Counted from the first letter of the stretch, positions 2,330 to 36,215 are shown. The stretch is DNA of 58,693 bases from a virus (IMGVR_UViG_3300035698_012504:1-58693); one strand, 5' to 3'. Numbers and translations: made by a program. Notes: generated from the sequence alone by a model not told the origin.

Positions 2330-2688
2330 GCGTCCAGCAAAGAGAAGAAGAACTATTCGATTTATTACAACGTTCAGGATTTAAGAAAAGAAGTCATCGC
2401 ACATCTATGATGGATTTTAGAGAAGAATCGTTTGATTTTGGTAACTATGTAGTAATTACTCTAAATGAAAATGGGTATATTGATGTGGAGATAGTAGATA
2501 AATTAGATATAGATAAATCGAGATACTACTATGTTAAAAGAATGGATAAAAGTAGTTTTAAAATGAGAATATATGCGAGTACTTATCCCGTGGCACCAGA
2601 ACGTATATTCGAATTTAAAATAGGAATAGATAAATTAGGAAAATTAATAAATACGTTTGATGTATTTAAACAAGGAGCAATATTATGA
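2326..2688 (+). CDS. hypothetical small protein, array member (C-term KQGAIL)
   Basis: The start was moved to the ATG at 2326, which overlaps the previous TGA. Confidence 0.5.
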   Translation: MSVQQREEELFDLLQRSGFKKRSHRTSMMDFREESFDFGNYVVITLNENGYIDVEIVDKLDIDKSRYYYVKRMDKSSFKMRIYASTYPVAPERIFEFKIGIDKLGKLINTFDVFKQGAIL

Positions 2689-2876
2689 TATACATAGATA
2701 CTATGGATCGTTATATAATTAAGAATTATGATGAGTATGTTAGTAAAATACATACAGACATACTTACCACAATCCAACATAAACTTAATAAAGGTTATGA
2801 TGAGTGGACACACTATGAATACTTTCTTAGTCGTCATCTTATAAGATCTATTAATAGCTCGAACATATGTAGTTGA
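2685..2876 (+). CDS. hypothetical small protein, array member
   Basis: ATGA-coupled at its start. There is no conserved tail, and a 26-nt spacer follows. Confidence 0.4.
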   Translation: MIYIDTMDRYIIKNYDEYVSKIHTDILTTIQHKLNKGYDEWTHYEYFLSRHLIRSINSSNICS

Positions 2877-2902
2877 ATATTTGCAAAACAAGGAGTTGTG
2901 GT

Positions 2903-3361
2903 ATGACTGAAAGAGGTATAATTAATGTATTAGATTCTTTACAATTCAACAACTCTAAAATATCTGGATCTTTTGCTGCCCCTATTAATGGAAGGGGATT
3001 TGCTCATATGAATCCAGGTCCTCCAACAGCACGATTTACATTCAGAGATAAAAATAGAATATCACTATCAACTACAATTTCAAAACCACAGATGATTGAT
3101 GTAGTATCAAGAAGAACCCATTTACTCGGAGGAATATCAAGACGTGGCCTAGTTGTAGAATGTTGGTTATACATACACTCTGATATAAATGATTATTATC
3201 TTTACTTTGTCGTACCATTTAATGAATCGACATTCACTGTTTATTTCACTCATAAATATAATGAGAAGGATAAAGATCATATTGATAGGGTTGGAACATT
3301 GTTTAGTAGATCAAAACCTATATTCATTCTAGATGTATTGAAGCGAGGAGTCGTGATATGA
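2903..3361 (+). CDS. hypothetical small protein, array member (C-term KRGVVI)
   Basis: The start was moved to the ATG at 2903, which has an AAGGAG Shine-Dalgarno sequence 7 nt upstream. Confidence 0.5.
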   Translation: MTERGIINVLDSLQFNNSKISGSFAAPINGRGFAHMNPGPPTARFTFRDKNRISLSTTISKPQMIDVVSRRTHLLGGISRRGLVVECWLYIHSDINDYYLYFVVPFNESTFTVYFTHKYNEKDKDHIDRVGTLFSRSKPIFILDVLKRGVVI

Positions 3362-3687
3362 TGTATACAGATGGATCAGATATGCTATATACATTTACAT
3401 TATCTGACGTAATAACTGGTGTAAAGGGTAGATCGTTTGATTTCATTATAAAAATAGATGAATACCCAGACTTTGTTAACAAAGGGCATACAAGATTAAA
3501 AAAAGTATCTCTTTATTTCTCAGTGTTTGGTAAAACATGTACTATTGATTGTATGTTAAACTCTAAATTCCCAAATATATTCTTATTTAATAATCTCCAT
3601 TATATTGTGTTAGTATATAACAATGGAGTTACTATGCCAACTTCAGTTAACACATTTAATATAATATCTCATGGTATCGTAATATGA
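3358..3687 (+). CDS. hypothetical small protein, array member (C-term SHGIVI)
   Basis: ATGA-coupled. Confidence 0.5.
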   Translation: MMYTDGSDMLYTFTLSDVITGVKGRSFDFIIKIDEYPDFVNKGHTRLKKVSLYFSVFGKTCTIDCMLNSKFPNIFLFNNLHYIVLVYNNGVTMPTSVNTFNIISHGIVI

Positions 3688-3965
3688 TTGTAGATACTAC
3701 TGATATGAAAGAGCTAGGTATTGGTGTATGTATCTCAGAAGGGTTATGGGTAGATACATTTCACACCAAAGATATAATGCTAACTTTATACCGTTATATA
3801 GATGGAGGATCAATTACATCCATAACTAGAGATCAGGCTGAATTGGTCAGACATCATGGTAGAGTATATACATTTGATTTATTTGATACGCATATTATAT
3901 CATCTGCTCATCATAATGGATTAATTACTCCACTCAACATGATAAAGAGAGGGATTGTAATATGA
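3684..3965 (+). CDS. hypothetical small protein, array member (C-term KRGIVI)
   Basis: ATGA-coupled. Confidence 0.5.
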   Translation: MIVDTTDMKELGIGVCISEGLWVDTFHTKDIMLTLYRYIDGGSITSITRDQAELVRHHGRVYTFDLFDTHIISSAHHNGLITPLNMIKRGIVI

Positions 3966-4189
3966 TATTTGACAACGGCAACGAGTTATTATTTGAAGAT
4001 TGTCTACCAGTGTATGATGTGTATTTTAAAATATCTGATGTTTTTGGTATACCCCTCCGTATTAAATTTCCCCTTCCAAAAAATAAATATGGAAATCCCA
4101 AAGTTTTATATTACCTTCCGACGCTCCCTAGAATACATATCTCAATAATATTTAAGTTGATATATTATAGTAAAGGAATTAATATATGA
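3962..4189 (+). CDS. hypothetical small protein, MIFDNGN subfamily (C-term SKGINI)
   Basis: MIFDNGNELLFEDCLPVYDVY. ATGA-coupled. Confidence 0.55.
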   Translation: MIFDNGNELLFEDCLPVYDVYFKISDVFGIPLRIKFPLPKNKYGNPKVLYYLPTLPRIHISIIFKLIYYSKGINI

Positions 4190-4488
4190 TATATGAAGAT
4201 ACTACAGATGCCCTAATGGGGGTGGAATATAATCCCGCAGAAGAATGTATTAAACTTAGCTATGGTAAGGAATCATTTTCACATGTAGATGTTGCTCTTT
4301 ATAGTGATGGTGGATTCGGATTTAGAATATCTAGATACCATTATATGAATATGTTGTCGTGTGTTACAGTAAAACGATCATACCGACAAAGGTTCGAATA
4401 TATATTTAAGACTGGATGCCATGAGCAATTTAGAAAGAAGCGATATGTTAATCTGATGGATATCTTCAACAGAGGAGTTCCTATATAG
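4186..4488 (+). CDS. hypothetical small protein, array member (C-term NRGVPI)
   Basis: ATGA-coupled. Confidence 0.5.
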   Translation: MIYEDTTDALMGVEYNPAEECIKLSYGKESFSHVDVALYSDGGFGFRISRYHYMNMLSCVTVKRSYRQRFEYIFKTGCHEQFRKKRYVNLMDIFNRGVPI

Positions 4489-4712
4489 TGTATGTAGATG
4501 TAAAAGTTAATATGATGCTTAGTGCCGTAATGTACAAAGATGCTGGAGATTTTCGCGACTTGTGTGTTCATAATTATACTAGACCACTAGCCATTAAACC
4601 AATTAGATATAGTGGATATGGTAGGGATATGGGTTATACAGCATACATTAGAGGTTTTAGATTTAAGGACGTATTTAACCAAGTAATGAAGAGAGGAATA
4701 GTATGGAAATAG
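4488..4712 (+). CDS. hypothetical small protein, array member (GTG start; C-term KRGIVWK)
   Basis: GTG at 4488 lies 10 nt after an AGAGGAG motif. Its stop overlaps the thyX start. Confidence 0.4.
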   Translation: MYVDVKVNMMLSAVMYKDAGDFRDLCVHNYTRPLAIKPIRYSGYGRDMGYTAYIRGFRFKDVFNQVMKRGIVWK

Positions 4713-5485
4713 TAGAACCGAAAGTATTTTTAATAGCAGAAACTAAATTAGATAATGAGGGCCTTCTTGAATATCTCAAGGATCTTAACGTATTAGATTA
4801 TAGCTGGAGTGCCCCGTCTGATTCAGAGGCGCTATGTGAGATGATGGGAAGATTGTGTTATAGATCATTCAAGCCTGGTCTTAATCCCAATGTTACAAAA
4901 GTAAGGACCGGTAATGATGTATACTTAAAGAACATTATAAACACTGGGCATGGGTCAGTTTTAGAACATGCTAGTGTAAGTTTTATATTCAAAGACGTAT
5001 CTCGAGTATTCACGCATGAGCTTGTTCGACATAGATCAGGGGTAGCTATATCTCAAGAGTCTCTTAGATTCGTTAGGTTAGATAAGCTTAGTGCGTATGT
5101 CCCGATACAGATAGAAGAGAATGAAGAAGCAATGTCTTTGTTCATGGATACGTTTGATAAACTTGAAGAGGTGCAAAAACAACTCGCTGACATTTACGAT
5201 ATAGAGAACACTGATGACTTTGCTAGGAAGAAAGAATTAACCTCTGCATTCAGGAGAGTTGCCCCTATTGGATTAGCAACTACCATAGGGTGGACATGTA
5301 ATATGCGAGCACTAAGACACATAATCGAATTAAGAACTAGCCCACATGCAGAGATAGAACTTAGAGTAGTATTCGCAAAAGTATTTGATATAGTGAAAGA
5401 TAAATACCCTAATATATTTGGAGATTATAAAGTAGAGATGGTAGATGGTATACCGTGGGTGCATACTACGGAGGAGAAGATCTAA
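4703..5485 (+). CDS. thyX: flavin-dependent thymidylate synthase ThyX
   Basis: Carries the ThyX signature RHRSGVAISQESLRFV (RHRxxxxxQxSxR) and is 260 aa. Confidence 0.9.
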   Translation: MEIVEPKVFLIAETKLDNEGLLEYLKDLNVLDYSWSAPSDSEALCEMMGRLCYRSFKPGLNPNVTKVRTGNDVYLKNIINTGHGSVLEHASVSFIFKDVSRVFTHELVRHRSGVAISQESLRFVRLDKLSAYVPIQIEENEEAMSLFMDTFDKLEEVQKQLADIYDIENTDDFARKKELTSAFRRVAPIGLATTIGWTCNMRALRHIIELRTSPHAEIELRVVFAKVFDIVKDKYPNIFGDYKVEMVDGIPWVHTTEEKI

Positions 5486-5501
5486 CATAAGGTAGTGAAT
5501 T

Positions 5502-5702
5502 ATGATATATGTTACTGGATGTATAAACTCAACGTTTTCTGAAAAGTTGATACATGAATCATTTAATAACATCTTAATATTATTAGACTTCATAGATGAT
5601 GATGATTATATGAATTATATCCTTGAGTATGGTATTAAGATTTATCCAATTTGTCCCATTCGATTTGAACTCTATTTAATTATAGACACTCCCCTCAGAT
5701 AG
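5502..5702 (+). CDS. hypothetical small protein
   Basis: 66-aa ORF directly downstream of thyX. Confidence 0.35.
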   Translation: MIYVTGCINSTFSEKLIHESFNNILILLDFIDDDDYMNYILEYGIKIYPICPIRFELYLIIDTPLR

Positions 5703-5828
5703 ATATTCATTTCACACAAAGTCCAAAAATATCTGTAGTGTATACTAGTAAAGGTATACGTGTACCAGTCATTAGCTTTCATTTAATTGATATATTTAAG
5801 AGAGGGATAGCCATATAAAGGAGATAGT

Positions 5829-6077
5829 ATGCACATAGATGAAGACGGATTATACAATGAAGTTGCTCGTTATATTAGAACAAGGAATGATTTATCATTA
5901 GGACTTACTGTTATGAATATAACAAATGGTAAATTATTAATAGTAGTAGTTAATGACCCATCTAATAGAGGAACGCGGTTTAATCATGTAGATAATCTTA
6001 AAGAAATACTACCCAAAGTAATTCATTATTTCATATTAGTGTATATGGATGTTATGAAGGAAGGAATAAATATCTAA
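5829..6077 (+). CDS. hypothetical small protein, array member (C-term KEGINI)
   Basis: Preceded by AGAGGGATAGCCATATAAAGGAG. This restarts the array after a 126-nt spacer. Confidence 0.5.
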   Translation: MHIDEDGLYNEVARYIRTRNDLSLGLTVMNITNGKLLIVVVNDPSNRGTRFNHVDNLKEILPKVIHYFILVYMDVMKEGINI

Positions 6078-6451
6078 TGGATATGTATATGAGAACTCCT
6101 TTAATAAGACCATGTAGAGAAGAATATGATCATAGTTTTAGTACGAGAATATGTCACGCATGGATAAGAACTAAAACTAATTCATTTATTCACTTCCAAG
6201 TATCTGTTTCTCCAACTAACTCTACAGACAAATTCAAGCTGATGATGTTTTTGACAACAGATGATAAAATCAATGAAATAGGGACACGGGCATGGGTAGA
6301 AGAAAAACAAATATTAAGTATAGGAGCATCTAGGATGTTTGAATTATACTATGGGACCAGACTACAAAATCCTCTTATCATTCAGGGAATTTTTAAAAAA
6401 GGGGTATGTATCAATTCGAATGATTTTTTAAACGGAGGAATCGATATATGA
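6077..6451 (+). CDS. hypothetical small protein, array member (C-term NGGIDI)
   Basis: TAATG-coupled. Confidence 0.5.
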   Translation: MDMYMRTPLIRPCREEYDHSFSTRICHAWIRTKTNSFIHFQVSVSPTNSTDKFKLMMFLTTDDKINEIGTRAWVEEKQILSIGASRMFELYYGTRLQNPLIIQGIFKKGVCINSNDFLNGGIDI

Positions 6452-6810
6452 TATTTATATCTCCACCAGAAGATGGATTATATTCAGACTCAATTGTTAG
6501 GATAGAGCTTGTACCACACTCATCTAATCGCAGATATAAATTTATTGCTAATATTCCATCTAAACTAGATGATGTTTTATGTTCAATTTACGTCAGAAAA
6601 AAATCCCCATGGTGCCGAGACGATATAATAATAATATCATTCAAGCATCATAGATGTTATTTTCAAATATCTACTTTTAGTGGGTATGAACCAACTAAAG
6701 TATTTACTAAACCTAAAGTACAAACACTAATAACTAAACAGGGATGCAAATCAGAAGAAACTTATAGGGATATGGGTAGAATGTTTAGATGTGGAGGAAT
6801 CTCAATATGA
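6448..6810 (+). CDS. hypothetical small protein, array member (C-term CGGISI)
   Basis: ATGA-coupled. Confidence 0.5.
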   Translation: MIFISPPEDGLYSDSIVRIELVPHSSNRRYKFIANIPSKLDDVLCSIYVRKKSPWCRDDIIIISFKHHRCYFQISTFSGYEPTKVFTKPKVQTLITKQGCKSEETYRDMGRMFRCGGISI

Positions 6811-7037
6811 TATTCGACAACGGTAATAAATTGTTATTTAAAGATTGCTCGTTAGTATATGACTATCTTAAATTATATAATTACATTCACCTTCACCCTC
6901 ACCTTCACCCTCACCTTCACCTTCACCCTCACCCTCACCCTCACCTTCGCCCTCACTCCCGCCTTCCCCTTCACCCTCACCTTCAACCCGAAAAATTATT
7001 TAACTGGGTGTATAATAAAGGAGGAGTTGTGATATGA
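6807..7037 (+). CDS. hypothetical His/Pro/Leu-repeat protein, MIFDNGN subfamily (C-term KGGVVI)
   Basis: MIFDNGNKLLFKDCSLVYDYLKLY followed by HLHPHLHPHLHLHPHPHPHLRPH. It is a near-identical paralog of the ORF at 8556. Confidence 0.55.
   Translation: MIFDNGNKLLFKDCSLVYDYLKLYNYIHLHPHLHPHLHLHPHPHPHLRPHSRLPLHPHLQPEKLFNWVYNKGGVVI
6886..6988. repeat. hexanucleotide microsatellite (CACCTT/CACCCT)n, about 16 units, inside the CDS at 6807
   Basis: Direct reading shows cac ctt cac cct cac ctt ... repeated about 16 times. Confidence 0.9.
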
Positions 7038-7432
7038 TATTTGATACGACGTGTGAATATAACATGTATCAGTATGCATATGGAATGACTACACGTAAGA
7101 ATACAGTGACTAGAGAACATACTAGAATTACTATCCGTTCTCTTAGAGGTTATTGTTTCACATTCGAAAATCTAAGACATCCTCCGAAAGAATATGAAGG
7201 GCATTTTATATCGAGGGACGTTGAAGAGTTTTTAATAATTTATAAAGTAGATAGGATTACAGATGTTTATTACGATTTTATAAGAATAGGGAAAGTAGTG
7301 AGAGGGAAGAATCATTTAGTACGAAATGGAAAGAGAGAAATAATAATAACAACTGGTGTAAATCATACTACATCTGTTCCCAATGTATGTACAATTATAT
7401 TGGCGCTTTGTAGGAAAGGAACAGTCATATGA
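7034..7432 (+). CDS. hypothetical small protein, array member (C-term RKGTVI)
   Basis: ATGA-coupled. Confidence 0.5.
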   Translation: MIFDTTCEYNMYQYAYGMTTRKNTVTREHTRITIRSLRGYCFTFENLRHPPKEYEGHFISRDVEEFLIIYKVDRITDVYYDFIRIGKVVRGKNHLVRNGKREIIITTGVNHTTSVPNVCTIILALCRKGTVI

Positions 7433-7647
7433 TATTTGATAATGATAATAAAATGTTGATCGGAGATCCTACTAAAGCTTATAATACATATTGTTATATT
7501 AATACTCACACATGGGCAATTCAATATCTTAGTATGCATCTTCATACTAAATATCTTAATCTTACTCTTTTCCCACATTCTCGATTCCATCCTAGATTAG
7601 GAACCACATACAAATGGATAATTGAAAATAAAGGGGTCGTGATATGA
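7429..7647 (+). CDS. hypothetical small protein, MIFDNDN subfamily (C-term NKGVVI)
   Basis: MIFDNDNKMLIGD. ATGA-coupled. Confidence 0.5.
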   Translation: MIFDNDNKMLIGDPTKAYNTYCYINTHTWAIQYLSMHLHTKYLNLTLFPHSRFHPRLGTTYKWIIENKGVVI

Positions 7648-8006
7648 TATTTGAATCGGTTAACATTGATTTGTTTTGGAGAGATGGATTACATTTGAGA
7701 ACATTAAAACATGGTTATACCCACTTCTTTAGAGAAACTTACGTTGATAAAATATTTATGCATGATACATTTATAGGAGATTTATTACTCGAATGTATCC
7801 TTGTCAACCATATAGATTATATAAGAATACGAATTCCAACATTTCCATATAGATCCATGACATATAAATTTGATATGGGTACCGAGATACTCATTCGATT
7901 TGGATCTGGTAATATATTCTGTACGCAGACAAGTAAAAAAGAAGAAAAAATTAAGTGGTTTCAATTTGGAACTTTAGATATCATGACTAGAGGGGTAGTT
8001 ATATGA
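7644..8006 (+). CDS. hypothetical small protein, array member (C-term TRGVVI)
   Basis: Its MIFESV N-terminus is shared with the ORF at 9960. Confidence 0.5.
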   Translation: MIFESVNIDLFWRDGLHLRTLKHGYTHFFRETYVDKIFMHDTFIGDLLLECILVNHIDYIRIRIPTFPYRSMTYKFDMGTEILIRFGSGNIFCTQTSKKEEKIKWFQFGTLDIMTRGVVI

Positions 8007-8251
8007 TTTATGTATATGATGCATCAGATTCATTACAAGGTATAAGATTAGATGATATTGAATTTTATATATCATCGGATGCAGTATGTGATATGTGTAA
8101 GAGAACAGATATTATGTGTGATAATCAATGTGCTATTTACTTTAATTCATGGCCATTTACAGAGGTGACCAAAGAGTTTTATGTTCCACCACGACCAACC
8201 ATCCCTCTTATGTATAATTGGGTGAGGAGACAGATAGGAGCTGTTGTATGA
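8003..8251 (+). CDS. hypothetical small protein, array member (C-term QIGAVV)
   Basis: ATGA-coupled. Confidence 0.5.
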   Translation: MIYVYDASDSLQGIRLDDIEFYISSDAVCDMCKRTDIMCDNQCAIYFNSWPFTEVTKEFYVPPRPTIPLMYNWVRRQIGAVV

Positions 8252-8559
8252 TATATTTTACAAATGACACCCAGGGCGGGATGCAACAACATAATATAGA
8301 TGTCTACGTTAAAGATGTGTTACAGTTTTATAGACAAATCTATGATTTTGAACCTTACTATAATATACTAGATCCTATATTAAAGTATGCCCCAATATGT
8401 AGATATACTAGAGATGCTATATTATTTACACAAGAGGTATCCCCTGGTCTTTTTGGGGTTGTGATTAAAGAAGAACATCAAGAATTTCATGGAGTTAAAG
8501 TTACATTGTCTTTTATATGTGGATGGGTAATGCATCAACAACAAGGAGTAATTATATGA
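8248..8559 (+). CDS. hypothetical small protein, array member (C-term QQGVII)
   Basis: The start was moved to the ATG at 8248, which overlaps the previous TGA. Confidence 0.5.
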   Translation: MIYFTNDTQGGMQQHNIDVYVKDVLQFYRQIYDFEPYYNILDPILKYAPICRYTRDAILFTQEVSPGLFGVVIKEEHQEFHGVKVTLSFICGWVMHQQQGVII

Positions 8560-8786
8560 TGTTTGATAACGGTAATAAATTGTTATTTAAAGATTGCTCG
8601 TTAGTATATGACTATCTTAAATTATATGATTACATTCACCTTCACCTTCACCTTCACCCTCACCTTCACCCTCACCTTCACCTTCTCCCTCACCTTCTCC
8701 CTCACCCCCGCCTTTCCCTTCACCCTCACCTTCAACCCGAAAAATTATTTAACTGGGTGTATAATAGAGGAGGAGTAATAATATAA
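8556..8786 (+). CDS. hypothetical His/Leu/Pro-repeat protein, MIFDNGN subfamily (paralog of 6807)
   Basis: MMFDNGNKLLFKDCSLVYDYLKLYDYIHLHLHLHPHLHPH... The ends are near-identical to 6807..7037 and the repeat count differs. Confidence 0.55.
   Translation: MMFDNGNKLLFKDCSLVYDYLKLYDYIHLHLHLHPHLHPHLHLLPHLLPHPRLSLHPHLQPEKLFNWVYNRGGVII
8634..8738. repeat. hexanucleotide microsatellite (CACCTT/CACCCT/CTCCCT)n, second copy
   Basis: Direct reading. The unit order and count differ from the 6886..6988 copy. Confidence 0.9.
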
Positions 8787-8881
8787 TGTATGTAGATTGT
8801 ATGGATAAGGATATTTATCCAGAAGCCATTTAATTAGGATGTTCAAATACATATGATAAGAGTGGAGATACATGCGATCTA

Positions 8882-9139
8882 ATGTTTTGCAACTTCAGTG
8901 AAAAACATCCATATGAATTTCTTATGAAATTAGGAATATCTGATATAAGAATAAAAATATCATATCCAGTTGGAGAGCGAAGAGTAGTTAATTTAATGAT
9001 ACTTGGACTAAAGAGCGGTGATGGAATATATGTAAAGTTCAGCGCACTGAAGACAATAACAATTATGTCTGAAGATGGGGAACGCAAATGGAATGATTAC
9101 ATGGGTTGGTTTTTACAGCAAGGTATATATATTAAATAG
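8882..9139 (+). CDS. hypothetical small protein (C-term QQGIYIK)
   Basis: 85-aa ORF that follows a 95-nt spacer containing the small hairpin GGATAAGGATATTTATCC. Confidence 0.4.
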   Translation: MFCNFSEKHPYEFLMKLGISDIRIKISYPVGERRVVNLMILGLKSGDGIYVKFSALKTITIMSEDGERKWNDYMGWFLQQGIYIK

Positions 9140-9692
9140 TGACAGAAGGAATCTATTTCACACAACCAAAAAGGAGAGAAGTGTGAAGAATATTCATTGG
9201 CCCAAGGCGTGCATCTATATTTTTCTTTTACTGTTTTTATTACTTGCTAATGGGGAAATTGTAGGCGAGTTGAAAAGACCTATAATAGAATCCCAATTGA
9301 GTGCTGCGATAACAATTCCAGTTGTTATATTAGGTTTAAGTCAGAGCATATTCTTGGGATGGCTCATCGGGGCCATCGTCTGCTCATCTATAGGATTTAT
9401 GAATAATCCAATTGAACGTGTAATTGAAGAATTTGATAAAAAAGGAATACGAGCATATTATACAAATATGATATCTTTTTACGGGCTCATTATATTAACA
9501 CCATATAATTTATTTCTGTACTTTTGGCCAGTAGACGCAACTACTACGTTTATATTTGGAAACATTATGTTTTGGGCTGTATCTAGTATTATAATTTATA
9601 AGAATCTATGGGAGAACGTGAAGATTGACAACTTGGTTAAGGAGTGGTTCTTATGCAAGCCCTATCAGATATGTTTAAAATCTCAAAGCTAG
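9075..9692 (+). CDS. small integral membrane protein (4 to 5 predicted TM segments)
   Basis: Hydrophobic stretches IYIFLLLFLLLA, ITIPVVILGLSQSIFLGWLIGAIV and FYGLIILTPYNLFLYFWP. The start is uncertain; a GTG at 9183 follows AAGGAGAG. Confidence 0.5.
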   Translation: MGNANGMITWVGFYSKVYILNSDRRNLFHTTKKERSVKNIHWPKACIYIFLLLFLLLANGEIVGELKRPIIESQLSAAITIPVVILGLSQSIFLGWLIGAIVCSSIGFMNNPIERVIEEFDKKGIRAYYTNMISFYGLIILTPYNLFLYFWPVDATTTFIFGNIMFWAVSSIIIYKNLWENVKIDNLVKEWFLCKPYQICLKSQS

Positions 9693-9949
9693 CAGTCGCT
9701 GTATTCATTCTAATAAATGTACTACATGTATTGATGTTTGTTGTAGCTATACCTATAGTAGTTATGTTGTACACTAAACTTAAGCTTATGGGAACTATCC
9801 CAGAGGATGGGATTATACCACTTATAGTATTATTTGGGGGTGGTGCTACTGTTGGCTTAGCATTTTCGTCTATGAAAAAGAAAATTTTAGAGTGTGTGGT
9901 ACCTGAATCTATGCATAATGAAAATAACCCGATAGTGGATGAACTATAA
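9653..9949 (+). CDS. small membrane protein (2 to 3 TM segments)
   Basis: AAGGAG Shine-Dalgarno sequence, then ATG at 9653. Hydrophobic stretches LAVAVFILINVLHVLMFVVAIPIVVML and IIPLIVLFGGGATVGLAF. Confidence 0.5.
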   Translation: MQALSDMFKISKLAVAVFILINVLHVLMFVVAIPIVVMLYTKLKLMGTIPEDGIIPLIVLFGGGATVGLAFSSMKKKILECVVPESMHNENNPIVDEL

Positions 9950-9959
9950 GGATAAATCC

Positions 9960-10289
9960 ATGATATTTGAATCTGTTAAATCTATTAGCCCATTTAATAG
10001 TAGTAATATAACTAAATACCCATTTGGAGAATCTTTAGTAACATGTCAAGTAGATTATAATCTTAGAAAGAAGTTTAGGATAGGGATAACTGTAATAAAT
10101 CATAACACATATTATAAAGAAAAGGTAATTGTGATTTCCTATTTCCAAACAGATGGTAAGATTAGAAGTGCTGAAATAGGGCCTATACAAAAATCATCAT
10201 TTAGATCCTATTTTACCACTAAAATTATTACACATGGTGAAATCATTAATGCTTTTCTTAAACTGACGGGTAATGGAATAAGTATATGA
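9960..10289 (+). CDS. hypothetical small protein, array member (MIFESV...; C-term GNGISI)
   Basis: Start at the ATG at 9960 after AAGGA. Ends in the conserved junction. Confidence 0.5.
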   Translation: MIFESVKSISPFNSSNITKYPFGESLVTCQVDYNLRKKFRIGITVINHNTYYKEKVIVISYFQTDGKIRSAEIGPIQKSSFRSYFTTKIITHGEIINAFLKLTGNGISI

Positions 10290-10414
10290 TAGTAGATGGG
10301 TTAATCATGGGATCCAACTCATCAGAAGTTAGACTTCAAAAAATGATAATATCTGGTAGCCTCAAACCAGGACAAGAATATATATCTATTATTGATCTTA
10401 CAAAAAAAGAGTAG
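10286..10414 (+). CDS. hypothetical 42-aa peptide, array member (MIVDG...)
   Basis: ATGA-coupled to the ORF at 9960. Too short to appear in the ORF track. Confidence 0.3.
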   Translation: MIVDGLIMGSNSSEVRLQKMIISGSLKPGQEYISIIDLTKKE

Positions 10415-12839: not shown

Positions 12840-12854
12840 GAAGTAATTATTCGT

Positions 12855-12886
12855 GTCTGGGGCTCTCTAGTTAGAGGGTCCCAGAC
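12855..12886 (+). terminator. candidate stem-loop terminator (GTCTGGGGCTCTC-TAGTTA-GAGGGTCCCAGAC)
   Basis: Imperfect inverted repeat of about 12 bp directly after a stop codon. The T-tract is weak. Confidence 0.35.
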
Positions 12887-12995
12887 ATAATTAGCAGTAT
12901 CAACAATAAATATATTATTTTTTATTGTTGAAAATATAATGAGGACAAACTATTAGATGTATGATAGTTCGAAGTTACAATGTGAGGAGAGTAAA

Positions 12996-13595
12996 ATGAA
13001 AAGAATCTTAGCAAGTTTTCTTATTGTAATCGCCAGTATATTTATACTATCTGGTTGCAAAACGCCATCAGCGGTCCAAGATGCGAATCAGGTATCGATA
13101 ATGTATCTACATTTAATTCAAGAGGATGTAAATATTACAATTGATGCATTGTCTGAAGCAGCTAAAGAAGAATCTACAAGATATTATGATTTATGGTTAG
13201 AGGGTACTGAGAAATTAATTATCAGCAATTCAATGACTCCACAAGAAGCCATAGATGATTATAAAACAGCATTAGAGAGCGCAGCCACTCAGGTAGATGC
13301 CGCCAGTGACACGTATGACGATCTATCAAGAGAAATAAAGAGCGAAATTCAGAATAAAATAGTTAGAGCACAGAAATTAGCAGAGAAAATAGCAGAATAT
13401 CATCAAAGTGGTAGCATTTCGGCTGAAGATTTTGATGAAATTCTAAATGAAAGTGCAGAATTTGCAATTGAGATGGCAGAAGTAAGAAAAAATAGAGAAA
13501 AAGCCGTTGAATCTGCAAATGATGGCAAAGGTAGTGATTTATTGAATATTATTAAAAATAATGTGCTAAAAGGAATGGTTCCTAAAGAAAAATAG
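12996..13595 (+). CDS. lipoprotein (signal peptide with lipobox LSGC), predicted coiled-coil
   Basis: MKRILASFLIVIASIFILSGCKTP, with GAGGAGAG as Shine-Dalgarno sequence. Confidence 0.65.
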   Translation: MKRILASFLIVIASIFILSGCKTPSAVQDANQVSIMYLHLIQEDVNITIDALSEAAKEESTRYYDLWLEGTEKLIISNSMTPQEAIDDYKTALESAATQVDAASDTYDDLSREIKSEIQNKIVRAQKLAEKIAEYHQSGSISAEDFDEILNESAEFAIEMAEVRKNREKAVESANDGKGSDLLNIIKNNVLKGMVPKEK

Positions 13596-13611
13596 GAAAA
13601 AGGAGTAGAAA

Positions 13612-13911
13612 ATGGATGAAAGTTTAGTTGATTTAATTGCTGAATCTCTTATTGCAGTGGCCAAGGGCGTCGCCGTAGAAGAAAAGAAGGTAGTAGCTGA
13701 TAAGAGCTATCTAAATGCTCCTGAGTGGACTCCACCGGCCTCTGTGGTGAACGTAAAGCTAACAGAAGACCCTTTGTCAAAAGAGGAATACCAGGGATTA
13801 CTAGATAGGGTGGACGTTGCTATCGAACAAGAGACAGCACTGAAGGAAGGTCTATCAATCGCTGCTGAAGTACTAAATAAATTAAAAACAGTACTCCCAT
13901 TATTTATATAA
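13612..13911 (+). CDS. hypothetical acidic protein
   Basis: 99-aa ORF with an AAAGGAG Shine-Dalgarno sequence. Confidence 0.45.
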   Translation: MDESLVDLIAESLIAVAKGVAVEEKKVVADKSYLNAPEWTPPASVVNVKLTEDPLSKEEYQGLLDRVDVAIEQETALKEGLSIAAEVLNKLKTVLPLFI

Positions 13912-13925
13912 CTGAGGTAAGTAAT

Positions 13926-14189
13926 ATGTATGTATCCGAACAATTCATAAATAATTTACAAGAGAAGGGGCGCTTTGTTAGGGTTGCTAAGAAGCTATTC
14001 AAAAAGAAAAAACCTGAAGCACCACCTCCACCAAAAGGCATTAAAGAAAAACTTCAGCGTAAGTTTGCATCAATGAAAAATAATGCTGCTGAAAAAGCGA
14101 AAAAGAAAAAGAGAAAAAATACTATGCATGCGACAGCTGGAGTCGGAGTAGTTGGGATGGCTGCATTAGGAGCCCAAGACAGGCACTAA
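13926..14189 (+). CDS. small Lys-rich basic protein with a Gly/Ala hydrophobic C-terminus and an MYVSEQFI N-terminus
   Basis: KKLFKKKKPEAPPPPKG...KKKKRKN, then ATAGVGVVGMAALGA. Confidence 0.5.
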   Translation: MYVSEQFINNLQEKGRFVRVAKKLFKKKKPEAPPPPKGIKEKLQRKFASMKNNAAEKAKKKKRKNTMHATAGVGVVGMAALGAQDRH

Positions 14190-15142: not shown

Positions 15143-16684
15143 ATGAGTTGGGTTTCACATAGACTAATTATGCATAATGACCCTAATACGTCCTTATCGC
15201 TCAATGTCTATCTCGAATCAGGAGTATTTGTTGAGAACGTTGGATACGAAAAGAAAAACTATGTTCCTGTTCGGTTAATGTTTCAAATAGTAGAATTTAA
15301 GAAAGAAACTAATTACTCTAAAATAGAACTTAATTATCCTGAACTAGTAGAATTGAATAGTAAAATTAGTAGGGCGTTGAGAAAACTTGACATCCTCTAC
15401 GATAATAAAGAAAAAATAACTATTGCGAAGTATACAGCGAAAGCTAAAAAACTTTTAACATTCACATTTAAAAGAAATCAAAATAAAGAGGGTGGAATAT
15501 CTATTAAGATAGATGACCAGAATGGTTCATTTGAAATAATGTTATCATTCACTACATTCCTGACTATAACTGAAGCGTTATCATCCATGGTAAGCAACTT
15601 CCCAGTTGTCTCTACAAATATGATGATAATTTCAAATCAAGAAAGAATACTAGAGTCGTTAGATAGGTTAGGATCCATACAACCAATCGCTACACCTCGA
15701 CCCGAACGACAACAAGAAAAAGTAATAGCAACCTCTAGTGCTGATGACTTCGATATAGTTAAAGAAGAGCCTAAAGTTGCAGCATCCTCTGGATTTGATG
15801 TGGAGGGGTTAGACCTCGACGCACTTAAAACTCAAATCACTGACGGGATAACCGATGGGATAGAGGACGAAGTATCTGATGACCGGTTTTTTCGGGTAGT
15901 ACTTAAAAATGATTTAACTAATCTAAAAAGTTGGACGACTTCTGTGCTCTGTACAGGAAAAGACACAGAAGCTATCATGTTTAGTCCATTATATGCATTA
16001 TTACGCAGTTCAATGAGTTTTAAAGATTTTAGTGAGCTTGAATTTAGAAAATCCTTCTTTAGTTATCAAGCAACACTACTAAAAGAAATTAAAGATCGTT
16101 CATTAAAGTATGTTTCGGGGGAATCTAAAGGATTTGGTATAATTCCCAACTATTCATTGAATTTTACAACTTCAGAATCGAAAAAAGTTTTTAGAACTGC
16201 ATTAGAATTATTCACTACCTTAGTAATTTATAGTAAAATAGCAATAGAAATATCTAGAATTAACAACTATGAAGTTAAAAATGATGCAGATGGTTATATC
16301 ATCGCACAATTTATACTAAATTCGACATTATCCCCACTAATAAAATCAATTTCAGAGAATTATAGAGATAAATTCTTAATGGATGCACTAAATCAGTTCA
16401 TTAGCATAAATGAATCAAGTATCATGACTAAAATTAGTACCGAATTTAATCAAATAACTGGTAAAAATTTATCAATTTCTGTCAAAGAATTCGAAATTAT
16501 GGCTGAAAAGCTAATCAATTCAGCTGAAAATAACAAAGATATAGAAGTTTTTCAAGAAAATATAACAAATATCGAAGATGTAAGGGATTTCTTTAATTCT
16601 ATTGAAGAAATAGAAGAAGATGATGTCCCTGAAGAAGAATTTCAAGTAGATACAATGGAAATTTTAAAAATAATGGATGAATAA
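15143..16684 (+). CDS. hypothetical large acidic protein
   Basis: The start was moved to the ATG at 15143 after TAGGAGGAATTTA. The C-terminus is an acidic tail. Confidence 0.45.
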   Translation: MSWVSHRLIMHNDPNTSLSLNVYLESGVFVENVGYEKKNYVPVRLMFQIVEFKKETNYSKIELNYPELVELNSKISRALRKLDILYDNKEKITIAKYTAKAKKLLTFTFKRNQNKEGGISIKIDDQNGSFEIMLSFTTFLTITEALSSMVSNFPVVSTNMMIISNQERILESLDRLGSIQPIATPRPERQQEKVIATSSADDFDIVKEEPKVAASSGFDVEGLDLDALKTQITDGITDGIEDEVSDDRFFRVVLKNDLTNLKSWTTSVLCTGKDTEAIMFSPLYALLRSSMSFKDFSELEFRKSFFSYQATLLKEIKDRSLKYVSGESKGFGIIPNYSLNFTTSESKKVFRTALELFTTLVIYSKIAIEISRINNYEVKNDADGYIIAQFILNSTLSPLIKSISENYRDKFLMDALNQFISINESSIMTKISTEFNQITGKNLSISVKEFEIMAEKLINSAENNKDIEVFQENITNIEDVRDFFNSIEEIEEDDVPEEEFQVDTMEILKIMDE

Positions 16685-16690
16685 TTACAA

Positions 16691-17314
16691 ATGTCTTTCA
16701 AATCGAAAATATTAAACATAAAGTTATCCCCAATGTGTAACAGGTCTCTTGTTTATACTACGTACCCTGCTGGTGTTCCAGTACATTTCTCTGTTAAGTT
16801 TCACAAAACTAACCCAGGGATTCAATTTGACGTTGGGAATAAAAACAAGGTTATAGAATCAGGAGAGGCAGTTGTTCGGATGTTTAGAAATCTGAACAAC
16901 TGTCTGTTCTGTAACATATTCTTAGATCTTGAGACTATACAGACAGGTAAACATGACTATAAAAATAGGTTTTCTTCGGTAAGGAAGCACTATAAAGATA
17001 AAGTCTTTAGATTCATAAATGAAAGATTAGATTTACATAGTAGTAATAATGGAAAAAATAGTTATCATAATAGTATAGGTGTATCGGGATGGAAAATCCA
17101 TGGGCTGGAGGATGACCTACTTTTTTATTTCGTTCAAAGAAACTTTTTCAATAAGATAACTGCAACAAATATAATAAGAACTGCAGGATTACAGTTCTCC
17201 ACGGCTAGAGGATTGAAATCTTTAGAAAATTATAAAGATGACTCTGAAAACTTCTTTAGAAAAGTTAATGAAAGTGATAATATGCAATTTCTTAATGAGG
17301 CTTTCAAAGAATAG
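16691..17314 (+). CDS. hypothetical protein
   Basis: 207-aa ORF. Confidence 0.45.
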   Translation: MSFKSKILNIKLSPMCNRSLVYTTYPAGVPVHFSVKFHKTNPGIQFDVGNKNKVIESGEAVVRMFRNLNNCLFCNIFLDLETIQTGKHDYKNRFSSVRKHYKDKVFRFINERLDLHSSNNGKNSYHNSIGVSGWKIHGLEDDLLFYFVQRNFFNKITATNIIRTAGLQFSTARGLKSLENYKDDSENFFRKVNESDNMQFLNEAFKE

Positions 17315-17323
17315 GAGAATATA

Positions 17324-18589
17324 ATGGCAGAAGAACCACTAAATCACCACATATCACCAAACATGGCGCATCACTATTATATTAATAATGTATTTAGTGC
17401 TTTTATACGTGGGATCGCAGATTATTTTAAAACAGAATGGTTTGATGGTAGAAATAAAGATATTGTAATATCTACATATGAAAAAGCAGTAGAACATTTT
17501 AGAAACCGTCAGAACTTTGGAGGAGAGAAATTTTCTCCCAAATATCCATTTATAACATTCAATCCAGAGATTGACTTCGAGCCAGATGACCCTATGGGGA
17601 AATTCTTTCACAATTATCCAATATACAAAGGTTATTCTTCACAAATAGCTGCTAATTTATATAGTCCTTATATTTTTGAAGATGATAATGTGACTATTTC
17701 TGCAGTTATGAATAGATATAAAGGAAACTTTGAAATGATATTGTGGGCTAGTTCTGTATATGAGCTAATAGATTTTAAGGCGTATACATATCAGTTTTTT
17801 GGTGGTATGAATCGCCCAATATATCCTGCTATAATCGAATCATACCTTACTCTACCAGATGAATTTATATATTATACATATGATAACCCATATACAGCAG
17901 AAAAATACAATCTAGATTGGGAAAAATCAACTGGAGAAATAAATCTATTTAAAAACATCAACCAGAACAAGATGGTGTTTCCCTTTGTTCTGAGACCTTG
18001 GATTAAACTAACTGGTGCCAGCGATGGTTCAGAAAAGTATGGTGGTTCTGGAGATGAAATCGGAGATCATAGATTAGTTATTAATATGGAATGGGAAGTA
18101 ACATTACCGACCCATATGATAATGAGAGCAAGGAAGTTTCCAGATAGGTGTCATAAATTTCAGATGGATATACAAGTATCATCAAGATATATTCCACTAG
18201 CAAATGATTCAAGTACCCAGTATCCTGTAGCAGATGAAGTGACCGTTGTTTATGATGACATGATTGATTCGACTGCATCAGCTGAAGAAGCAATGGTATC
18301 AGTTGACCTAATTTATCACGATGCATATCAGTATGTTTGGACACAAGAGGATTACGATCTAGCAAATTCAACTACAGTGGCCGACAAGGATAAAAAGATC
18401 TCTTTAGATATTCCGAGAGAACCAACGGACTGTGTGTATCTAAAAGTGTATGGTAAGTATGGGGAGCTAGTTCGAGACTTCTATTGGAATGTGGTATCAC
18501 AAAACCAATTAGAATTGGTAGCATTTAATTTAAATTCATTAGAAGTAGATGATATATTAATGATTGTATATTATACAGAAAATGATTAG
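17324..18589 (+). CDS. hypothetical protein
   Basis: 421-aa ORF with an AGGAGAATATA Shine-Dalgarno sequence. Confidence 0.45.
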   Translation: MAEEPLNHHISPNMAHHYYINNVFSAFIRGIADYFKTEWFDGRNKDIVISTYEKAVEHFRNRQNFGGEKFSPKYPFITFNPEIDFEPDDPMGKFFHNYPIYKGYSSQIAANLYSPYIFEDDNVTISAVMNRYKGNFEMILWASSVYELIDFKAYTYQFFGGMNRPIYPAIIESYLTLPDEFIYYTYDNPYTAEKYNLDWEKSTGEINLFKNINQNKMVFPFVLRPWIKLTGASDGSEKYGGSGDEIGDHRLVINMEWEVTLPTHMIMRARKFPDRCHKFQMDIQVSSRYIPLANDSSTQYPVADEVTVVYDDMIDSTASAEEAMVSVDLIYHDAYQYVWTQEDYDLANSTTVADKDKKISLDIPREPTDCVYLKVYGKYGELVRDFYWNVVSQNQLELVAFNLNSLEVDDILMIVYYTEND

Positions 18590-18610: not shown

Positions 18611-19177
18611 ATGTCTAAAAAACTTTCATATGAATATGTAAAGCAATATTTTGAAGAAAATAGTTGCGAATTATTAGAAAGGGAATATGATAATTGTATG
18701 ATTAAAATGAAATATAAATGTTCTTGTGGAAGAATAAGTAAAATAAGTTTTAATAATTTTAAAAGTAAACATAGATGTAGTGATTGTGGTGGGAATGAAA
18801 AACATTCTTATGAATATATAAAACAATATTTTAAAGATAATAATTGTGAATTATTAGAAAAAGAATATATTAATAATAAAACTAACATGAAATATAAATG
18901 TGAATGTGAAATATTACTAGGATATTCTAGAAAAGATATTTTAGAGTATCTTAAGAAGGATCCAAATTTTGATAACTGGGTAAAGAATTCATCCAGCTGG
19001 CACATAGATCATATTATTCCAATAAAAGCATTTGTAGAAAATGAAATAACTAATCCGAAAATAATAAACGCTTTAGATAATTTAAGAATTATACACTGGA
19101 AAGAAAATTTACAAAAAGGTGCTACATTTAATAAGAATGAACTTCAAAGTTATGTGCAATCGAAAGGTATATTATGA
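18611..19177 (+). CDS. HNH homing endonuclease with a duplicated N-terminal Cys4 zinc module
   Basis: Two copies of YEYVKQYF..NCELLE.EY...MKYKC.CG...HRC..CG, then SSWHIDHIIPIKAF...LDNLRIIHWKEN (HNH). Confidence 0.8.
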   Translation: MSKKLSYEYVKQYFEENSCELLEREYDNCMIKMKYKCSCGRISKISFNNFKSKHRCSDCGGNEKHSYEYIKQYFKDNNCELLEKEYINNKTNMKYKCECEILLGYSRKDILEYLKKDPNFDNWVKNSSSWHIDHIIPIKAFVENEITNPKIINALDNLRIIHWKENLQKGATFNKNELQSYVQSKGIL

Positions 19178-20746: not shown

Positions 20747-21434
20747 ATGGGTAAAAAATTAACTTATGAATATGTTAAACAATACTTTAAAGATAATAAT
20801 TGTGAATTGTTAGAAGATGAATATATTAATTCTAGGACTAAAATGAAATATAAGTGTTCATGTGGGAATACATCTGAGATTAGATTTAGTGATTTTAAAA
20901 ACGGTCATAGATGTAATAAATGTGGGACTAAAAGGACCCGTGATAAATTAAGTCATAGTTATAAATATATAAAGCAATTATTTAAAGATCAGGGGTGTGA
21001 ATTATTAGAAAAAGATTATGTTGATAATCATACTAATATGAAATATATATGTTCTTGCGGTAACTCTGCAGAAATAACTTTTAACAGATTTCAATATGGA
21101 CATAGATGTATGAGATGTGGAAATGATAAGATATCAGGTCATAATCATCATAATTGGAACCCTGATAGAAATGTTGTTAGGAAGACAAAAGAGATACACA
21201 ACTTAAGTGCGTCATATAAAAATAACTACAGAAAGAAACATAACATCTAAAGACGTGCATATAGATCATATAATTCCGGTAAAAGCATTTGTGGAAAATG
21301 GGATATTTGATTTAGATATAATCAATGATGATAAAAATTTACAGTTGCTTTCCAGTAGGGAAAATTTAAGTAAAAGTGGTAAATATAATCAGGAAGATCT
21401 TGTAATATTTTTAAAGGAAAGGGTATCGGTATAA
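20747..21434 (+). pseudogene. disrupted paralog of the zinc-finger HNH endonuclease family
   Basis: The 20747..21250 fragment carries the duplicated Zn modules and HNWNPDR. The 21207..21434 fragment is in another frame and carries VHIDHIIPVKAF...LSSRENL (HNH). The LGYSR linker found in the intact paralogs is missing. Confidence 0.6.
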
Positions 21435-24653: not shown

Positions 24654-26315
24654 ATGACGTATAAACCATCATTTAGAAAATACAAAGCCCTTAAAGTTAA
24701 AAAACCAAAAAGAAATATTAGGGCCACTGATAAGCGAGGGCAAGTAACTATAAAAGGAAAATCTATATCAATTACTGAAGTTGAGAAGCTACATCAAAAT
24801 AAAAAGGTAAGGAAACCTAAAACTATATATAGAAATAGAACAAGATCTGATGAACACAGACATTATCCATTAAATATAGTGGTTGTTGCATATAATGAAT
24901 TAGAATATACTATGAAATGTGTAGAATCTATCAGAAAGAATACAAAAGGATCATATGCCCTCTATTTAGTAGACAATGGGTCAGATGATAAAACATATAA
25001 ATACTTTAGGACTGTTAAAAATGCAAATATTATAAGGATTGATAAGAATCGGGGATATGCATATGGATGCAATGAAGCATTGCGTAAGATATTTCGTGGT
25101 GATGTGATTATATTAAATAGCAATATAATTGTTCCAAAAAATTGGACCACCCACCTTTTAAATGTTTTAAATTCTAATGAAAATATAGGTATGGTTGGTC
25201 CAGTGTCCAATGATATTAAAGGGGCACAGAATATAAATGTAGATATTAATTGTTCGCCTCAGGAGATTAATAAATTATCTGATAAGATTCAGATGAGTGC
25301 AGGAACTGCCAAAATTAAAGTAGATAATATTTGTGGACATTGTGTTGTTATACGTGGAGATGTATTTAAACAAATTGGATTATTTGATCCCGTATTTGTA
25401 TGTGATACCTTCGGAAATAATGATTACTGTAAGAGAGTAAAACTAATGGGGAAAGAGATAGTAATTTCAAAGGGATCGTTTGTTTACCATTGCACCAACG
25501 AATCACCTATTAGTATTGATGAAAAAGAATATACAAAACGGTTCGAATTTAACACAGGATTAACTCAAAAGAAATGGAATAATAAAGGAGTTGATCTTGA
25601 TAGTACGTTAATATTAGATATGGATGAATACGAGGACCTTGTATCTATTATAACACCATGCTTCAATAGTCATAACTTTATAGAAGCATGTGTAAATTCT
25701 GTCCTTACCCAAACTCATAAAAATATTGAAATGATAATAGTTGATGATGGATCTAATGCAGAGACAAAAAGAAAACTAAAGATGTGTGTTGATAAAAGCG
25801 AGCGTATTAAGTTAATAACTAATCCTATAAATAAGGGGAGATCGTTCTCTAGGAATAGAGCTATAGAAAATGCTAAAGGAAAATATATCCTCCCTCTTGA
25901 TTCTGATGATCTTATACATAGACAGTGTGTTGCAATATTAGTGAAGCATATGAAAGAAAATGATGATGCGAAAATTTGTTATCCTTTAACAAAGGAATTT
26001 GGAAATTGTAATAAAATATGGTTTTATCCTTATAGAAAAGATTTACTAGTTCAACAAAATTTATTACCATGCACCTCTATGTTCTTAAAGGATGCTTGGA
26101 TAAACTGTGGTGGGTATGATATAAGGGTGGATGGATACGAAGACTGGGACTTTTGGTTGAGAATGTATGATAGTAATACAAGGGCAATTGGTGTACCAGA
26201 ACCAATATTTTTTTATAGAAAACACAATACTAATTCTGCCAATGGTATAGATAGAAAACATGGGCACGATATAGTAACCAAAATTAAATCATTCCACCCT
26301 AAATTATTTGGATAG
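24654..26315 (+). CDS. bifunctional family-2 glycosyltransferase (two GT-A domains)
   Basis: VVVAYNELEYTMKCVESI...LVDNGSDDKT plus a DxD motif, and IITPCFNSHNFIEACVNSVLTQTHKNIEMIIVDDGSNAET...LPLDSDD. Confidence 0.8.
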   Translation: MTYKPSFRKYKALKVKKPKRNIRATDKRGQVTIKGKSISITEVEKLHQNKKVRKPKTIYRNRTRSDEHRHYPLNIVVVAYNELEYTMKCVESIRKNTKGSYALYLVDNGSDDKTYKYFRTVKNANIIRIDKNRGYAYGCNEALRKIFRGDVIILNSNIIVPKNWTTHLLNVLNSNENIGMVGPVSNDIKGAQNINVDINCSPQEINKLSDKIQMSAGTAKIKVDNICGHCVVIRGDVFKQIGLFDPVFVCDTFGNNDYCKRVKLMGKEIVISKGSFVYHCTNESPISIDEKEYTKRFEFNTGLTQKKWNNKGVDLDSTLILDMDEYEDLVSIITPCFNSHNFIEACVNSVLTQTHKNIEMIIVDDGSNAETKRKLKMCVDKSERIKLITNPINKGRSFSRNRAIENAKGKYILPLDSDDLIHRQCVAILVKHMKENDDAKICYPLTKEFGNCNKIWFYPYRKDLLVQQNLLPCTSMFLKDAWINCGGYDIRVDGYEDWDFWLRMYDSNTRAIGVPEPIFFYRKHNTNSANGIDRKHGHDIVTKIKSFHPKLFG

Positions 26316-26319
26316 TAAA

Positions 26320-31056: not shown

Positions 31057-31082
31057 AAAGGCTAGGGATAGAGAAATATTAA

Positions 31083-33085: not shown

Positions 33086-33087
33086 AT

Positions 33088-33573: not shown

Positions 33574-33583
33574 GGATATAGTT

Positions 33584-34114: not shown

Positions 34115-34128
34115 GAGTATTAGAGGAT

Positions 34129-34914: not shown

Positions 34915-34924
34915 AGGATTCAAT

Positions 34925-36213: not shown

Positions 36214-36215
36214 TT

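Follow-up and report, generated by a model that had tools for sequence, protein, structure and literature searches.

Why do several different proteins of one phage begin with the same few residues? This question is raised by the gene at 13926–14189 of a 58,693-nucleotide stretch of viral DNA, which was analysed at its whole length and is referred to as the window hereafter. The original prediction was that this open reading frame (ORF) and those at 49862 and 53000 share the start MY[IV]SE.F[IL], that this start resembles the capsid targeting sequence (CTS) of phage T4, and that the three proteins are candidates for packaging in the head and injection with the DNA.

Occurrence of the N-terminal peptide

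The common start was confirmed at all three positions. The pattern Y[IV]SE.F[IL] occurs three times in the 117,382 six-frame codons of the window, and every copy lies right behind an initiator Met; none is internal and none is on the minus strand. From the amino-acid frequencies of the window one would expect 0.004 copies in the whole proteome, and 2.4e-5 copies at the N-termini of the 102 genes. Each of the three ORFs has a GAGG-type ribosome-binding site 7–8 nt upstream, and the combined DNA pattern of this site and the motif gave 0 matches in 100 shuffles. A control with random internal 7-mers gave a mean of 0.14 similar pairs.

A search for further MY.SE.F starts added no other window gene in the strict form and three genes in a looser form. 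The looser pattern, M..S..F[ILMV], heads six of the 102 genes (13926, 39548, 43963, 49862, 50713 and 53000), where its internal frequency would predict 0.11 (Poisson P about 1e-7), and it heads none of the 121 ORFs on the minus strand. The consensus of the tag is M-[YSNH]-[IVSE]-S-[ENK]-x-F-[IL]. In leave-one-out PSSM scoring, 13926 reached 20.6, 49862 18.8, 53000 13.2 and 39548, a GNAT acetyltransferase gene, 12.5; the best score at any other N-terminus was at most 1.5 (1.3 in the 13926 run), and the 99.99th percentile of the internal positions was about 9–10. The score of 39548 exceeds those of all 15,505 internal positions, and this gene ranks fourth when the PSSM is made from the three strict tags only. 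The scores of 43963 (4.8) and 50713 (1.7) are weaker, yet each is the best among the remaining N-termini; that of 50713 is not significant against the internal positions. Judged by these scores, four memberships appear firm (13926, 49862, 53000 and 39548), and two are probable (43963) or possible (50713). The same short peptide heads at least four, and probably six, otherwise different proteins. A strict-looking ORF just upstream of the window (L013:9651, MYMSEHMF; score 4.9) was left uncounted on account of its ambiguous start.

The tag is followed by a Glu. All six tagged proteins have a Glu at residues 9–13, as compared with 29 of the 96 other genes (p=0.0012), and in five of the six this Glu belongs to a hydrophobic-x-Glu, as compared with 18 of the 96 others (p=0.002). 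The candidate sites are LQE, FIE, LNE, FIE and LEE; the P3 residues are Leu, Phe, Leu, Phe and Leu/Tyr, and in 53000 the P3 residue before Glu12 is Ser, which is not hydrophobic. An alternative site, [IV]-S-E5, is present in the strict members only (13926, 49862 and 53000). It is in this form that the predicted (I/L/V)-x-E sites hold in the three strict ORFs, whereas at the downstream Glu the P3 residue is Phe in two proteins and Ser in 53000. The tag is therefore real, confined to the N-terminus and followed by Glu, and it is modular, since one type of tag precedes a GNAT fold, proteins with a four-cysteine (Cys4) module and proteins with a hydrophobic tail.

The tagged proteins and their genes

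The six genes lie on the + strand, and five of their products are basic (pI 9.2–10.7). The 87-aa protein of 13926–14189 has the tag MYVSEQFINNLQE at 13926–13964, a Lys-rich body with PPPP, and then a Gly/Ala-rich hydrophobic C-terminus, ATAGVGVVGMAALGA. The identical protein occurs on nine contigs (eight among the matches listed) from ENA, JGI and Logan samples. The possible sixth member, 50713–50859 (48 aa; N-terminus MHESNMFIDYLEE at 50713–50751), looks like its miniature: it has a Gly/Ala-rich hydrophobic segment and a Lys tail, and this type of C-terminus is common to the two proteins. It was also called as a gene in independent assemblies.

The gene at 49862–50158 encodes 98 aa beginning with MYISEKFIENT (tag MYISEKFIENTVN at 49862–49900) and has its Cys4 module at 49955–50092. 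Among 1.84 billion representatives it has no credible homologue; besides itself, two marginal partial matches were found (E 1.8e-4 and 8.2e-4). The description of two of the three proteins as small and very basic proved right (pI 10.69 for 13926 and 10.25 for 49862). The gene at 53000–53728 encodes 242 aa with the start MYISESFLMSVE (tag MYISESFLMSVEF at 53000–53038). Its body is acidic and helical, and the predicted transmembrane (TM) helix and basic tail are there as a hydrophobic stretch at about residues 150–168 and a basic region after it, with the Cys4 module at 53537–53656. This protein matches only itself among 5.8 billion proteins, as does the adjacent 306-aa protein, and tblastn with 53000 against 50,697 phage records gave nothing. 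In the single-sequence AF2 model of 53000, the C-terminal 70 residues alone are confident (helical, pLDDT 70–90); outside the Cys4 tail the model is too poor for use, as is that of the GNAT protein.

The probable fifth member, 43963–44340 (125 aa, pI 10.0; N-terminus MNSSKSFIEANLR at 43963–44001), is counted as tagged mainly because it has, at 44116–44238, the Cys4 module in common with 49862 and 53000. Upstream of it, at 43875–43961, lies an unannotated hydrophobic mini-ORF of 28 aa, MSVLEIITAIINFLSMILSILAGLDISI, with a strong ribosome-binding site; its stop is one base before the start of 43963, and 43963 has no ribosome-binding site of its own.

The gene at 39548–40033 encodes the acetyltransferase (161 aa; tag MSISNQFLNELST at 39548–39586). 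Pfam gave Acetyltransf_1 (1e-08) and Acetyltransf_10, the latter aligning residues 23–127 with profile positions 7–112, and the alignment with PDB 3bln begins at query residue 41 and chain residue 31. These alignments put the GNAT fold from about residue 16 onward, and the tag is thus an appended extension of about 15 residues.

In 43963, 49862 and 53000 the C-terminal pattern is C-x10-12-C-x18-19-C-x8-11-C. It sits in Lys/Arg-rich helices, often with an internal N/K/T-P. In per-protein shuffles, the pattern, which was defined after the proteins had been seen, arose in 0.2–0.5% of the trials, and the pairwise BLASTP similarities among the three proteins are marginal. Because two of the three strict proteins (49862 and 53000) share this module, to call all three unrelated was an overstatement; the body of 13926 has a different architecture. 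The cargo comprises about three architectures and an enzyme: the proteins are paralogous in part, and the tag is reused on them as a module.

Comparison with known systems and alternative explanations

Mullaney and Black reportedly described the capsid targeting sequence of the T4 internal proteins in 1996. The T4 prohead protease gp21 cleaves after (Ile/Leu)-x-Glu. The T4 CTS is present on IPI, IPII, IPIII and Alt, and related propeptides are present on gp24 and gp22 (PMC9026906, PMC5694885); in the CTS, residues 4 and 7 are important for targeting, whereas processing involves residues 8 and 10 (PMC9026906). The N-termini, taken from NC_000866, are MKTYQEFIAE (IPII/IPIII), MKTFKEFTST... (IPI), MELITELFDE (Alt), MAKINELLRE (gp24) and MLKEQLIAE (gp22). 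When the N-terminal-sharing statistic was applied unchanged to 132 kb of T4, ipI, ipII, ipIII and gene 61.1 were obtained, together with two spurious pairs of non-gene ORFs. Since ipI, ipII and ipIII are found in this way, the heuristic behind the original prediction is sound. T4 gene 61.1 (NC_000866, 18966–19130) encodes the 54-aa hypothetical gp61.1, which has a CTS-like start, MKTFKEFIKE.

The tag resembles the T4 CTS in several respects. One is that the tag is a peptide of about 10–20 residues directly behind Met1. Another is that it is borne by differing bodies, namely small basic proteins and an enzyme (Alt in T4, the GNAT protein here). The third is that acidic residues are followed, in five of the six proteins, by a hydrophobic-x-Glu, which may be a cleavage site of the gp21 type. 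The last is that F7-[IL]8 stands at the same positions as F7-I8 of IPII and IPIII, L7-F8 of Alt and L7-L8 of gp24, the exception among the T4 propeptides listed being gp22, which has no hydrophobic pair at positions 7–8. The sequences themselves, however, are different: M-Y-I-S-E-x-F-I here, as against M-K-T-Y-Q-E-F-I-A-E. The tag lacks the T4 residues Lys2-Thr3 and Glu6 as well as an aromatic residue at position 4; Tyr is at position 2 instead of 4, and Glu at 5 instead of 6. The invariant residue is Ser4, which has no T4 counterpart, while in T4 it is Glu6, and the Glu after the tag varies in position between residues 9 and 13. Compared with the consensus of ipI, ipII and ipIII, M-K-T-[YF]-x-E-F-[IT], only Phe7 and Ile/Leu8 coincide. 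The proposed resemblance to MKTYQEFIAE is thus limited to this pair and the acidic character, and fails at all other consensus positions; the rendering of the T4 motif as Y-x-x-E-F-I was mistaken, as T4 has Y-Q-E-F-I and this phage has Y-x-S-E-x-F-I. In addition, several of the cargoes here contain hydrophobic, membrane-like segments or the Cys4 module, neither of which, to our knowledge, occurs in the T4 internal proteins. On paper, the tag may act like a CTS, yet by its sequence it stands outside the T4 CTS family.

Two other systems may be compared. Short peptides of bacterial microcompartments (encapsulation peptides) and encapsulins (cargo-loading peptides) place cargo inside a protein shell; those of encapsulins are usually C-terminal, and neither kind is proteolytically removed. 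The likeness, a short terminal peptide that docks unrelated cargo in a shell, is an analogy of principle only. Unlike in those systems, no shell gene of either kind was seen here, and the tag is not measurably amphipathic (no more than the other N-termini, p=0.13). The phiKZ-like giant phages (phiKZ, 201phi2-1 and SPN3US), with a gp21-like protease and S/A/G-x-E sites, also have large genomes (at least 155 kb here); many of their head-internal proteins are processed after Glu, and some of their ejection proteins have a transmembrane segment. SPN3US gp53 and gp54 are diverged proteins with identical N-termini (PMC5694885). However, the phiKZ-like propeptides mostly exceed 100 residues, while the conserved region here is at most 13 residues, and their P3 residues are small (Ser, Ala or Gly), while those here are mostly hydrophobic (Leu, Phe or Tyr; Ser in 53000). 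The phiKZ-like combination of S/A/G-x-E with a long propeptide is therefore not that of the tag, and neither a phiKZ-type RNA polymerase nor another phiKZ marker gene was found in the window.

Our verdict is that the peptide is probably a sorting tag at the N-terminus, specific to this lineage. Of the mechanisms considered, targeting to the capsid with subsequent release by proteolysis is the best supported; we prefer it tentatively, with a confidence that stops short of even. The preference is due to T4, which provides the sole documented phage system with this anatomy, and to the T4-type replication genes of the present phage, which include those of a clamp loader of the gp44 type (phrog_168, 1e-61) and of a UvsX-like recombinase. 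We infer a capsid destination, cleavage and injection in the following form. The tag would bind the scaffolding core during prohead assembly and thereby bring the cargo inside; a prohead protease specific for Glu would next release it by cutting at hydrophobic-x-Glu; and, on infection, the cargo would exit along with the DNA. The cuts would be expected after Glu13 in 13926, Glu9 in 49862 and 43963, Glu10 in 39548 and Glu12 in 53000. The basic tagged proteins might then act like the T4 internal proteins, and the acetyltransferase like T4 Alt, as a pre-made enzyme delivered into the host.

The proposal that these proteins are packaged and injected is favoured by the modular N-terminal tag, the Glu site and the T4 control, and weakened by the mismatch with the CTS consensus and by the missing head genes. 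None of the roughly 40 proteins scanned in the window and its flanks (about 71 kb were read, out of at least 155 kb) was recognised as a capsid, portal or scaffold protein or a prohead protease; unlike in T4, genes for gp21, gp22 and gp23 were not seen among them. If the capsid-targeting explanation is right, the head module must lie elsewhere in the genome. The gene at 45845 matches a "virion structural protein" PHROG, the family of which is also present in phiR1-37 and Listeria phage LPJP1. The T4 late-promoter sequence TATAAATA showed neither a strand bias nor a placement before genes. Should capsid targeting be correct, a T4-style short, removable address peptide with a different code would exist in a very distant lineage. 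The tag would mark, from sequence alone, proteins injected ahead of gene expression; the tagged proteins, including the GNAT protein, would be prime candidates for anti-defence or host-takeover effectors; and phage heads could be loaded with foreign proteins by means of a second naturally occurring tag.

The membrane-like hydrophobic segments in three of the cargoes fit a membrane destination at least as well as the capsid. The tag may be a short linear motif for another destination or partner, read by one common factor of phage or host: for instance a protein that assists membrane insertion, an export pathway, a chaperone, a protease (as a degron) or the structure of a phage actin-like protein, and the proteins would act in the infected cell and not in the capsid. 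We regard this as somewhat unlikely. The hydrophobic ends (Gly/Ala-rich) of 13926 and 50713 and the transmembrane-like helix of 53000 are consistent with it, as are the Cys4 module, which could be disulfide-bonded and would then suggest an extracytoplasmic location, the Volactin-type actin homologue that the phage encodes, and the lack of head genes near the tagged genes. The lipoprotein gene 12957 is located two genes upstream of 13926, and as a hairpin and a promoter-like stretch precede it, the three genes from 12957 to 13926 may form one unit. Nevertheless, the tag is polar and acidic, with three to four hydrophobic residues, and contains no hydrophobic core, twin-arginine or lipobox, in contrast to the lipoprotein signal of 12957, which ends in LSGC; it is therefore not a Sec, Tat or lipoprotein signal. 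The soluble GNAT protein and the non-hydrophobic 49862 and 43963 are tagged as well, the basic tails past the hydrophobic helix contradict the positive-inside rule for an N-in topology, and the tag fits no known class of N-degron. If the destination is not the capsid, the tag would be a new phage sorting signal.

Alternatively, the tag may be a relic of common ancestry: the proteins would be diverged paralogues in which the N-terminal helix is best kept, for example for oligomerisation, without a sorting role, and the GNAT gene would have gained its tag by a chance 5′ gene fusion. This appears unlikely, although it accounts for the Cys4 module in 43963, 49862 and 53000 with its low shuffle rates, the Gly/Ala hydrophobic tail shared by 13926 and 50713, and a faint BLASTP similarity that reaches past the tag; the genome is, moreover, rich in paralogous small-gene families with conserved N-termini (e.g., MIFDNGNK...). 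Against it, the tag precedes at least three unrelated body architectures, including a genuine GNAT fold. The nucleotide identity is 50–75% over codons 1–8 and falls to the chance level in codons 9–16; such a drop is typical of an independently constrained motif and not of uniformly decaying paralogues, and the true paralogue families in the window are similar over their whole length.

A broader version of the sorting idea is that this deep-branching phage has evolved a sorting code of its own, in which the N-terminal octapeptide picks effectors (the acetyltransferase, the Cys4 DNA-binding-like proteins and the small membrane proteins) that are to be delivered together with the DNA or sent to some other compartment made by the phage. 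We consider this distinctly improbable; if it were true, the injected-effector repertoire of an uncultured lineage would be readable from sequence.

It is very improbable that the signal acts at the RNA level, as a translational operator, a downstream box or an AU-rich initiation enhancer. RegA-type operators overlap AUG start codons in T4, the tagged genes all start with AUG-UAY/NNN and AU-rich codons, and the strict three have their GAGG sites at equal spacing. However, the conservation is seen only in translation. For Ser4, codons of the TCN as well as the AGY family are used (TCC, TCT, AGT, AGT, TCT and TCT across the six genes), synonymous or conservative codon differences exist at all of Tyr2, Ile/Val3, Glu5, Phe7 and Ile/Leu8, third positions vary at almost all conserved codons, and codons 1–8 are only 50–75% identical. 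The 40 nt upstream of the tagged genes are 20–53% identical, which is about the chance level. Since the codons differ and the upstream DNA is unrelated, selection is on the peptide; on these grounds, explanations by a DNA cassette or by an RNA operator were rejected. An accidental likeness between a handful of protein starts in an AT-rich genome, for which one may cite the scattered, unrelated starts with MYISE.F in IMG/VR and metagenome contigs at about the chance rate, is negligible in view of three occurrences in the window against 2.4e-5 expected and six against 0.11, the 0.14 similar pairs of the 7-mer control and the empty minus strand.

Lineage and genome surroundings

The window is AT-rich (about 31% GC), with essentially all genes on the + strand. 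They include the T4 gp44-like clamp loader, a primase, a class II ribonucleotide reductase with an intein, a FEN/RNase H-like nuclease, DHFR, dCMP deaminase, peptidyl-tRNA hydrolase and, by precomputed Pfam annotation, ThyX. The phage is uncultured, and metagenome contigs are its only record: its sequence was met again in assemblies of several samples at ENA, JGI and Logan. The source may be Antarctic saline lakes (samples such as JGI 3300023257, 3300022890 and 3300025669). In one ENA sample (assembly ERZ27315536), the contigs k141_424224 (74,849 bp) and k141_105526 (80,343 bp) meet at about 18.7 kb, the latter starting at window position 18,842, which gives a genome of no less than about 155 kb; k141_105526 continues for about 40 kb beyond the end of the window.

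Degenerate DNA scans for the tag gave 41 matches in IMG/VR and 90 in metagenome contigs, nearly all of which were short or out-of-frame ORFs or scattered unrelated starts; 'MYISEKFLENTV', for example, was out of frame within a 188-aa gene and was discarded. No DNA-level similarity of the window to phage records was found, and neither the 513-aa protein nor the clamp loader revealed a close relative in IMG/VR. The nearest relatives, found via the clamp loader (41–49% identity), share synteny with the phage. Full-length comparison of the clamp loader with its counterparts in T4-like cyanophages and jumbo phage RsoM2USA gave no more than 36% identity, and its best partial match is Microcystis phage Mel-JY01 (45% over 69% of the query). 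In the loci of the relatives that were read, the tag was not found; the tag-like NENFLNFISE, at the syntenic spot in the relative L150, belongs to a doubtful 29-aa ORF and was too weak to use.

The phage and its relatives have a conserved gene order, consisting of proteins of 513–711 aa, about 173–211 aa and about 392–421 aa, the clamp loader, and a protein of about 332 aa. The first three form a block upstream of the clamp loader (15143–18589 in the window, and 366–4114, 4543–7998 and 4326–8304 in the relatives L148, L150 and L151, respectively), which adjoins the clamp loader or is separated from it by a few inserted genes. The third protein is 42–50% identical across the phage and its relatives. 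For the block proteins (513, 207 and 421 aa in the window), neither single-sequence nor profile searches gave a PDB match, no Pfam family was found among the members scanned, and the PHROG search with the window proteins and five of the nine homologues from the relatives gave only a marginal match (0.0021) to an unannotated family. The block is a core module of the lineage. The lipoprotein genes 12957–13595 (lipobox LSGC) and L150 3050–3748 (lipobox LVGC), each with a signal peptide, occupy the same position relative to this block, the latter being one gene and a gap away from it and the former two genes upstream of 13926. A strong hairpin at 12853–12888 precedes 12957.

Several other features were observed in the window. 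At 386–10414, about 20 small packed ORFs, many with ATGA overlaps, start with M-I-[FYV]-[DE] (MIFDNGNKLLF, MIFDNDNK, MIYEDTTD and MIVDTTD are examples); they appear to form one large family of paralogues, encoding small proteins of the early type. The island at 24654–37487 (13 kb) contains GT2, GT8 and GT1-like glycosyltransferases, sulfotransferase- and methyltransferase-like proteins and an ATP-grasp enzyme, and is unusually large for a phage. The window is also dense in mobile endonuclease genes (18611–19177, 20747–21250, 52200–53009 and 54473–55291; 40033–40554, 46574–48415, 57179–58075 and 40573–43803): four endonuclease paralogues start with M.KK.[ST]YEYVKQYF, and there are an HNH gene, a DUF7487/C2H2 homing endonuclease, a GIY-YIG gene and the LAGLIDADG intein of the ribonucleotide reductase. 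The break between the two ENA contigs falls inside 18611–19177. The actin homologue is a 354-aa protein (56158–57222) with a full-length match to Pfam Volactin (PF25216, E 1.3e-61); Volactin is an actin homologue described in haloarchaea.

Two observations concern the flanks. In L013 1–7000 (k141_424224, about 3–10 kb upstream of the window start), the GC content rises from about 31% to 45–54% with the gene orientation unchanged, which could reflect a mosaic segment or a chimeric assembly; other contigs break near this transition. On the other side, at about 59.8–61.5 kb in window coordinates (L009 11484–13139), lies a partial protein of more than 552 aa. Its ends are UvsX/RecA-like and its centre matches terminase, helicase and primase PHROGs, probably via a shared intein, which suggests an intein-interrupted recombinase.
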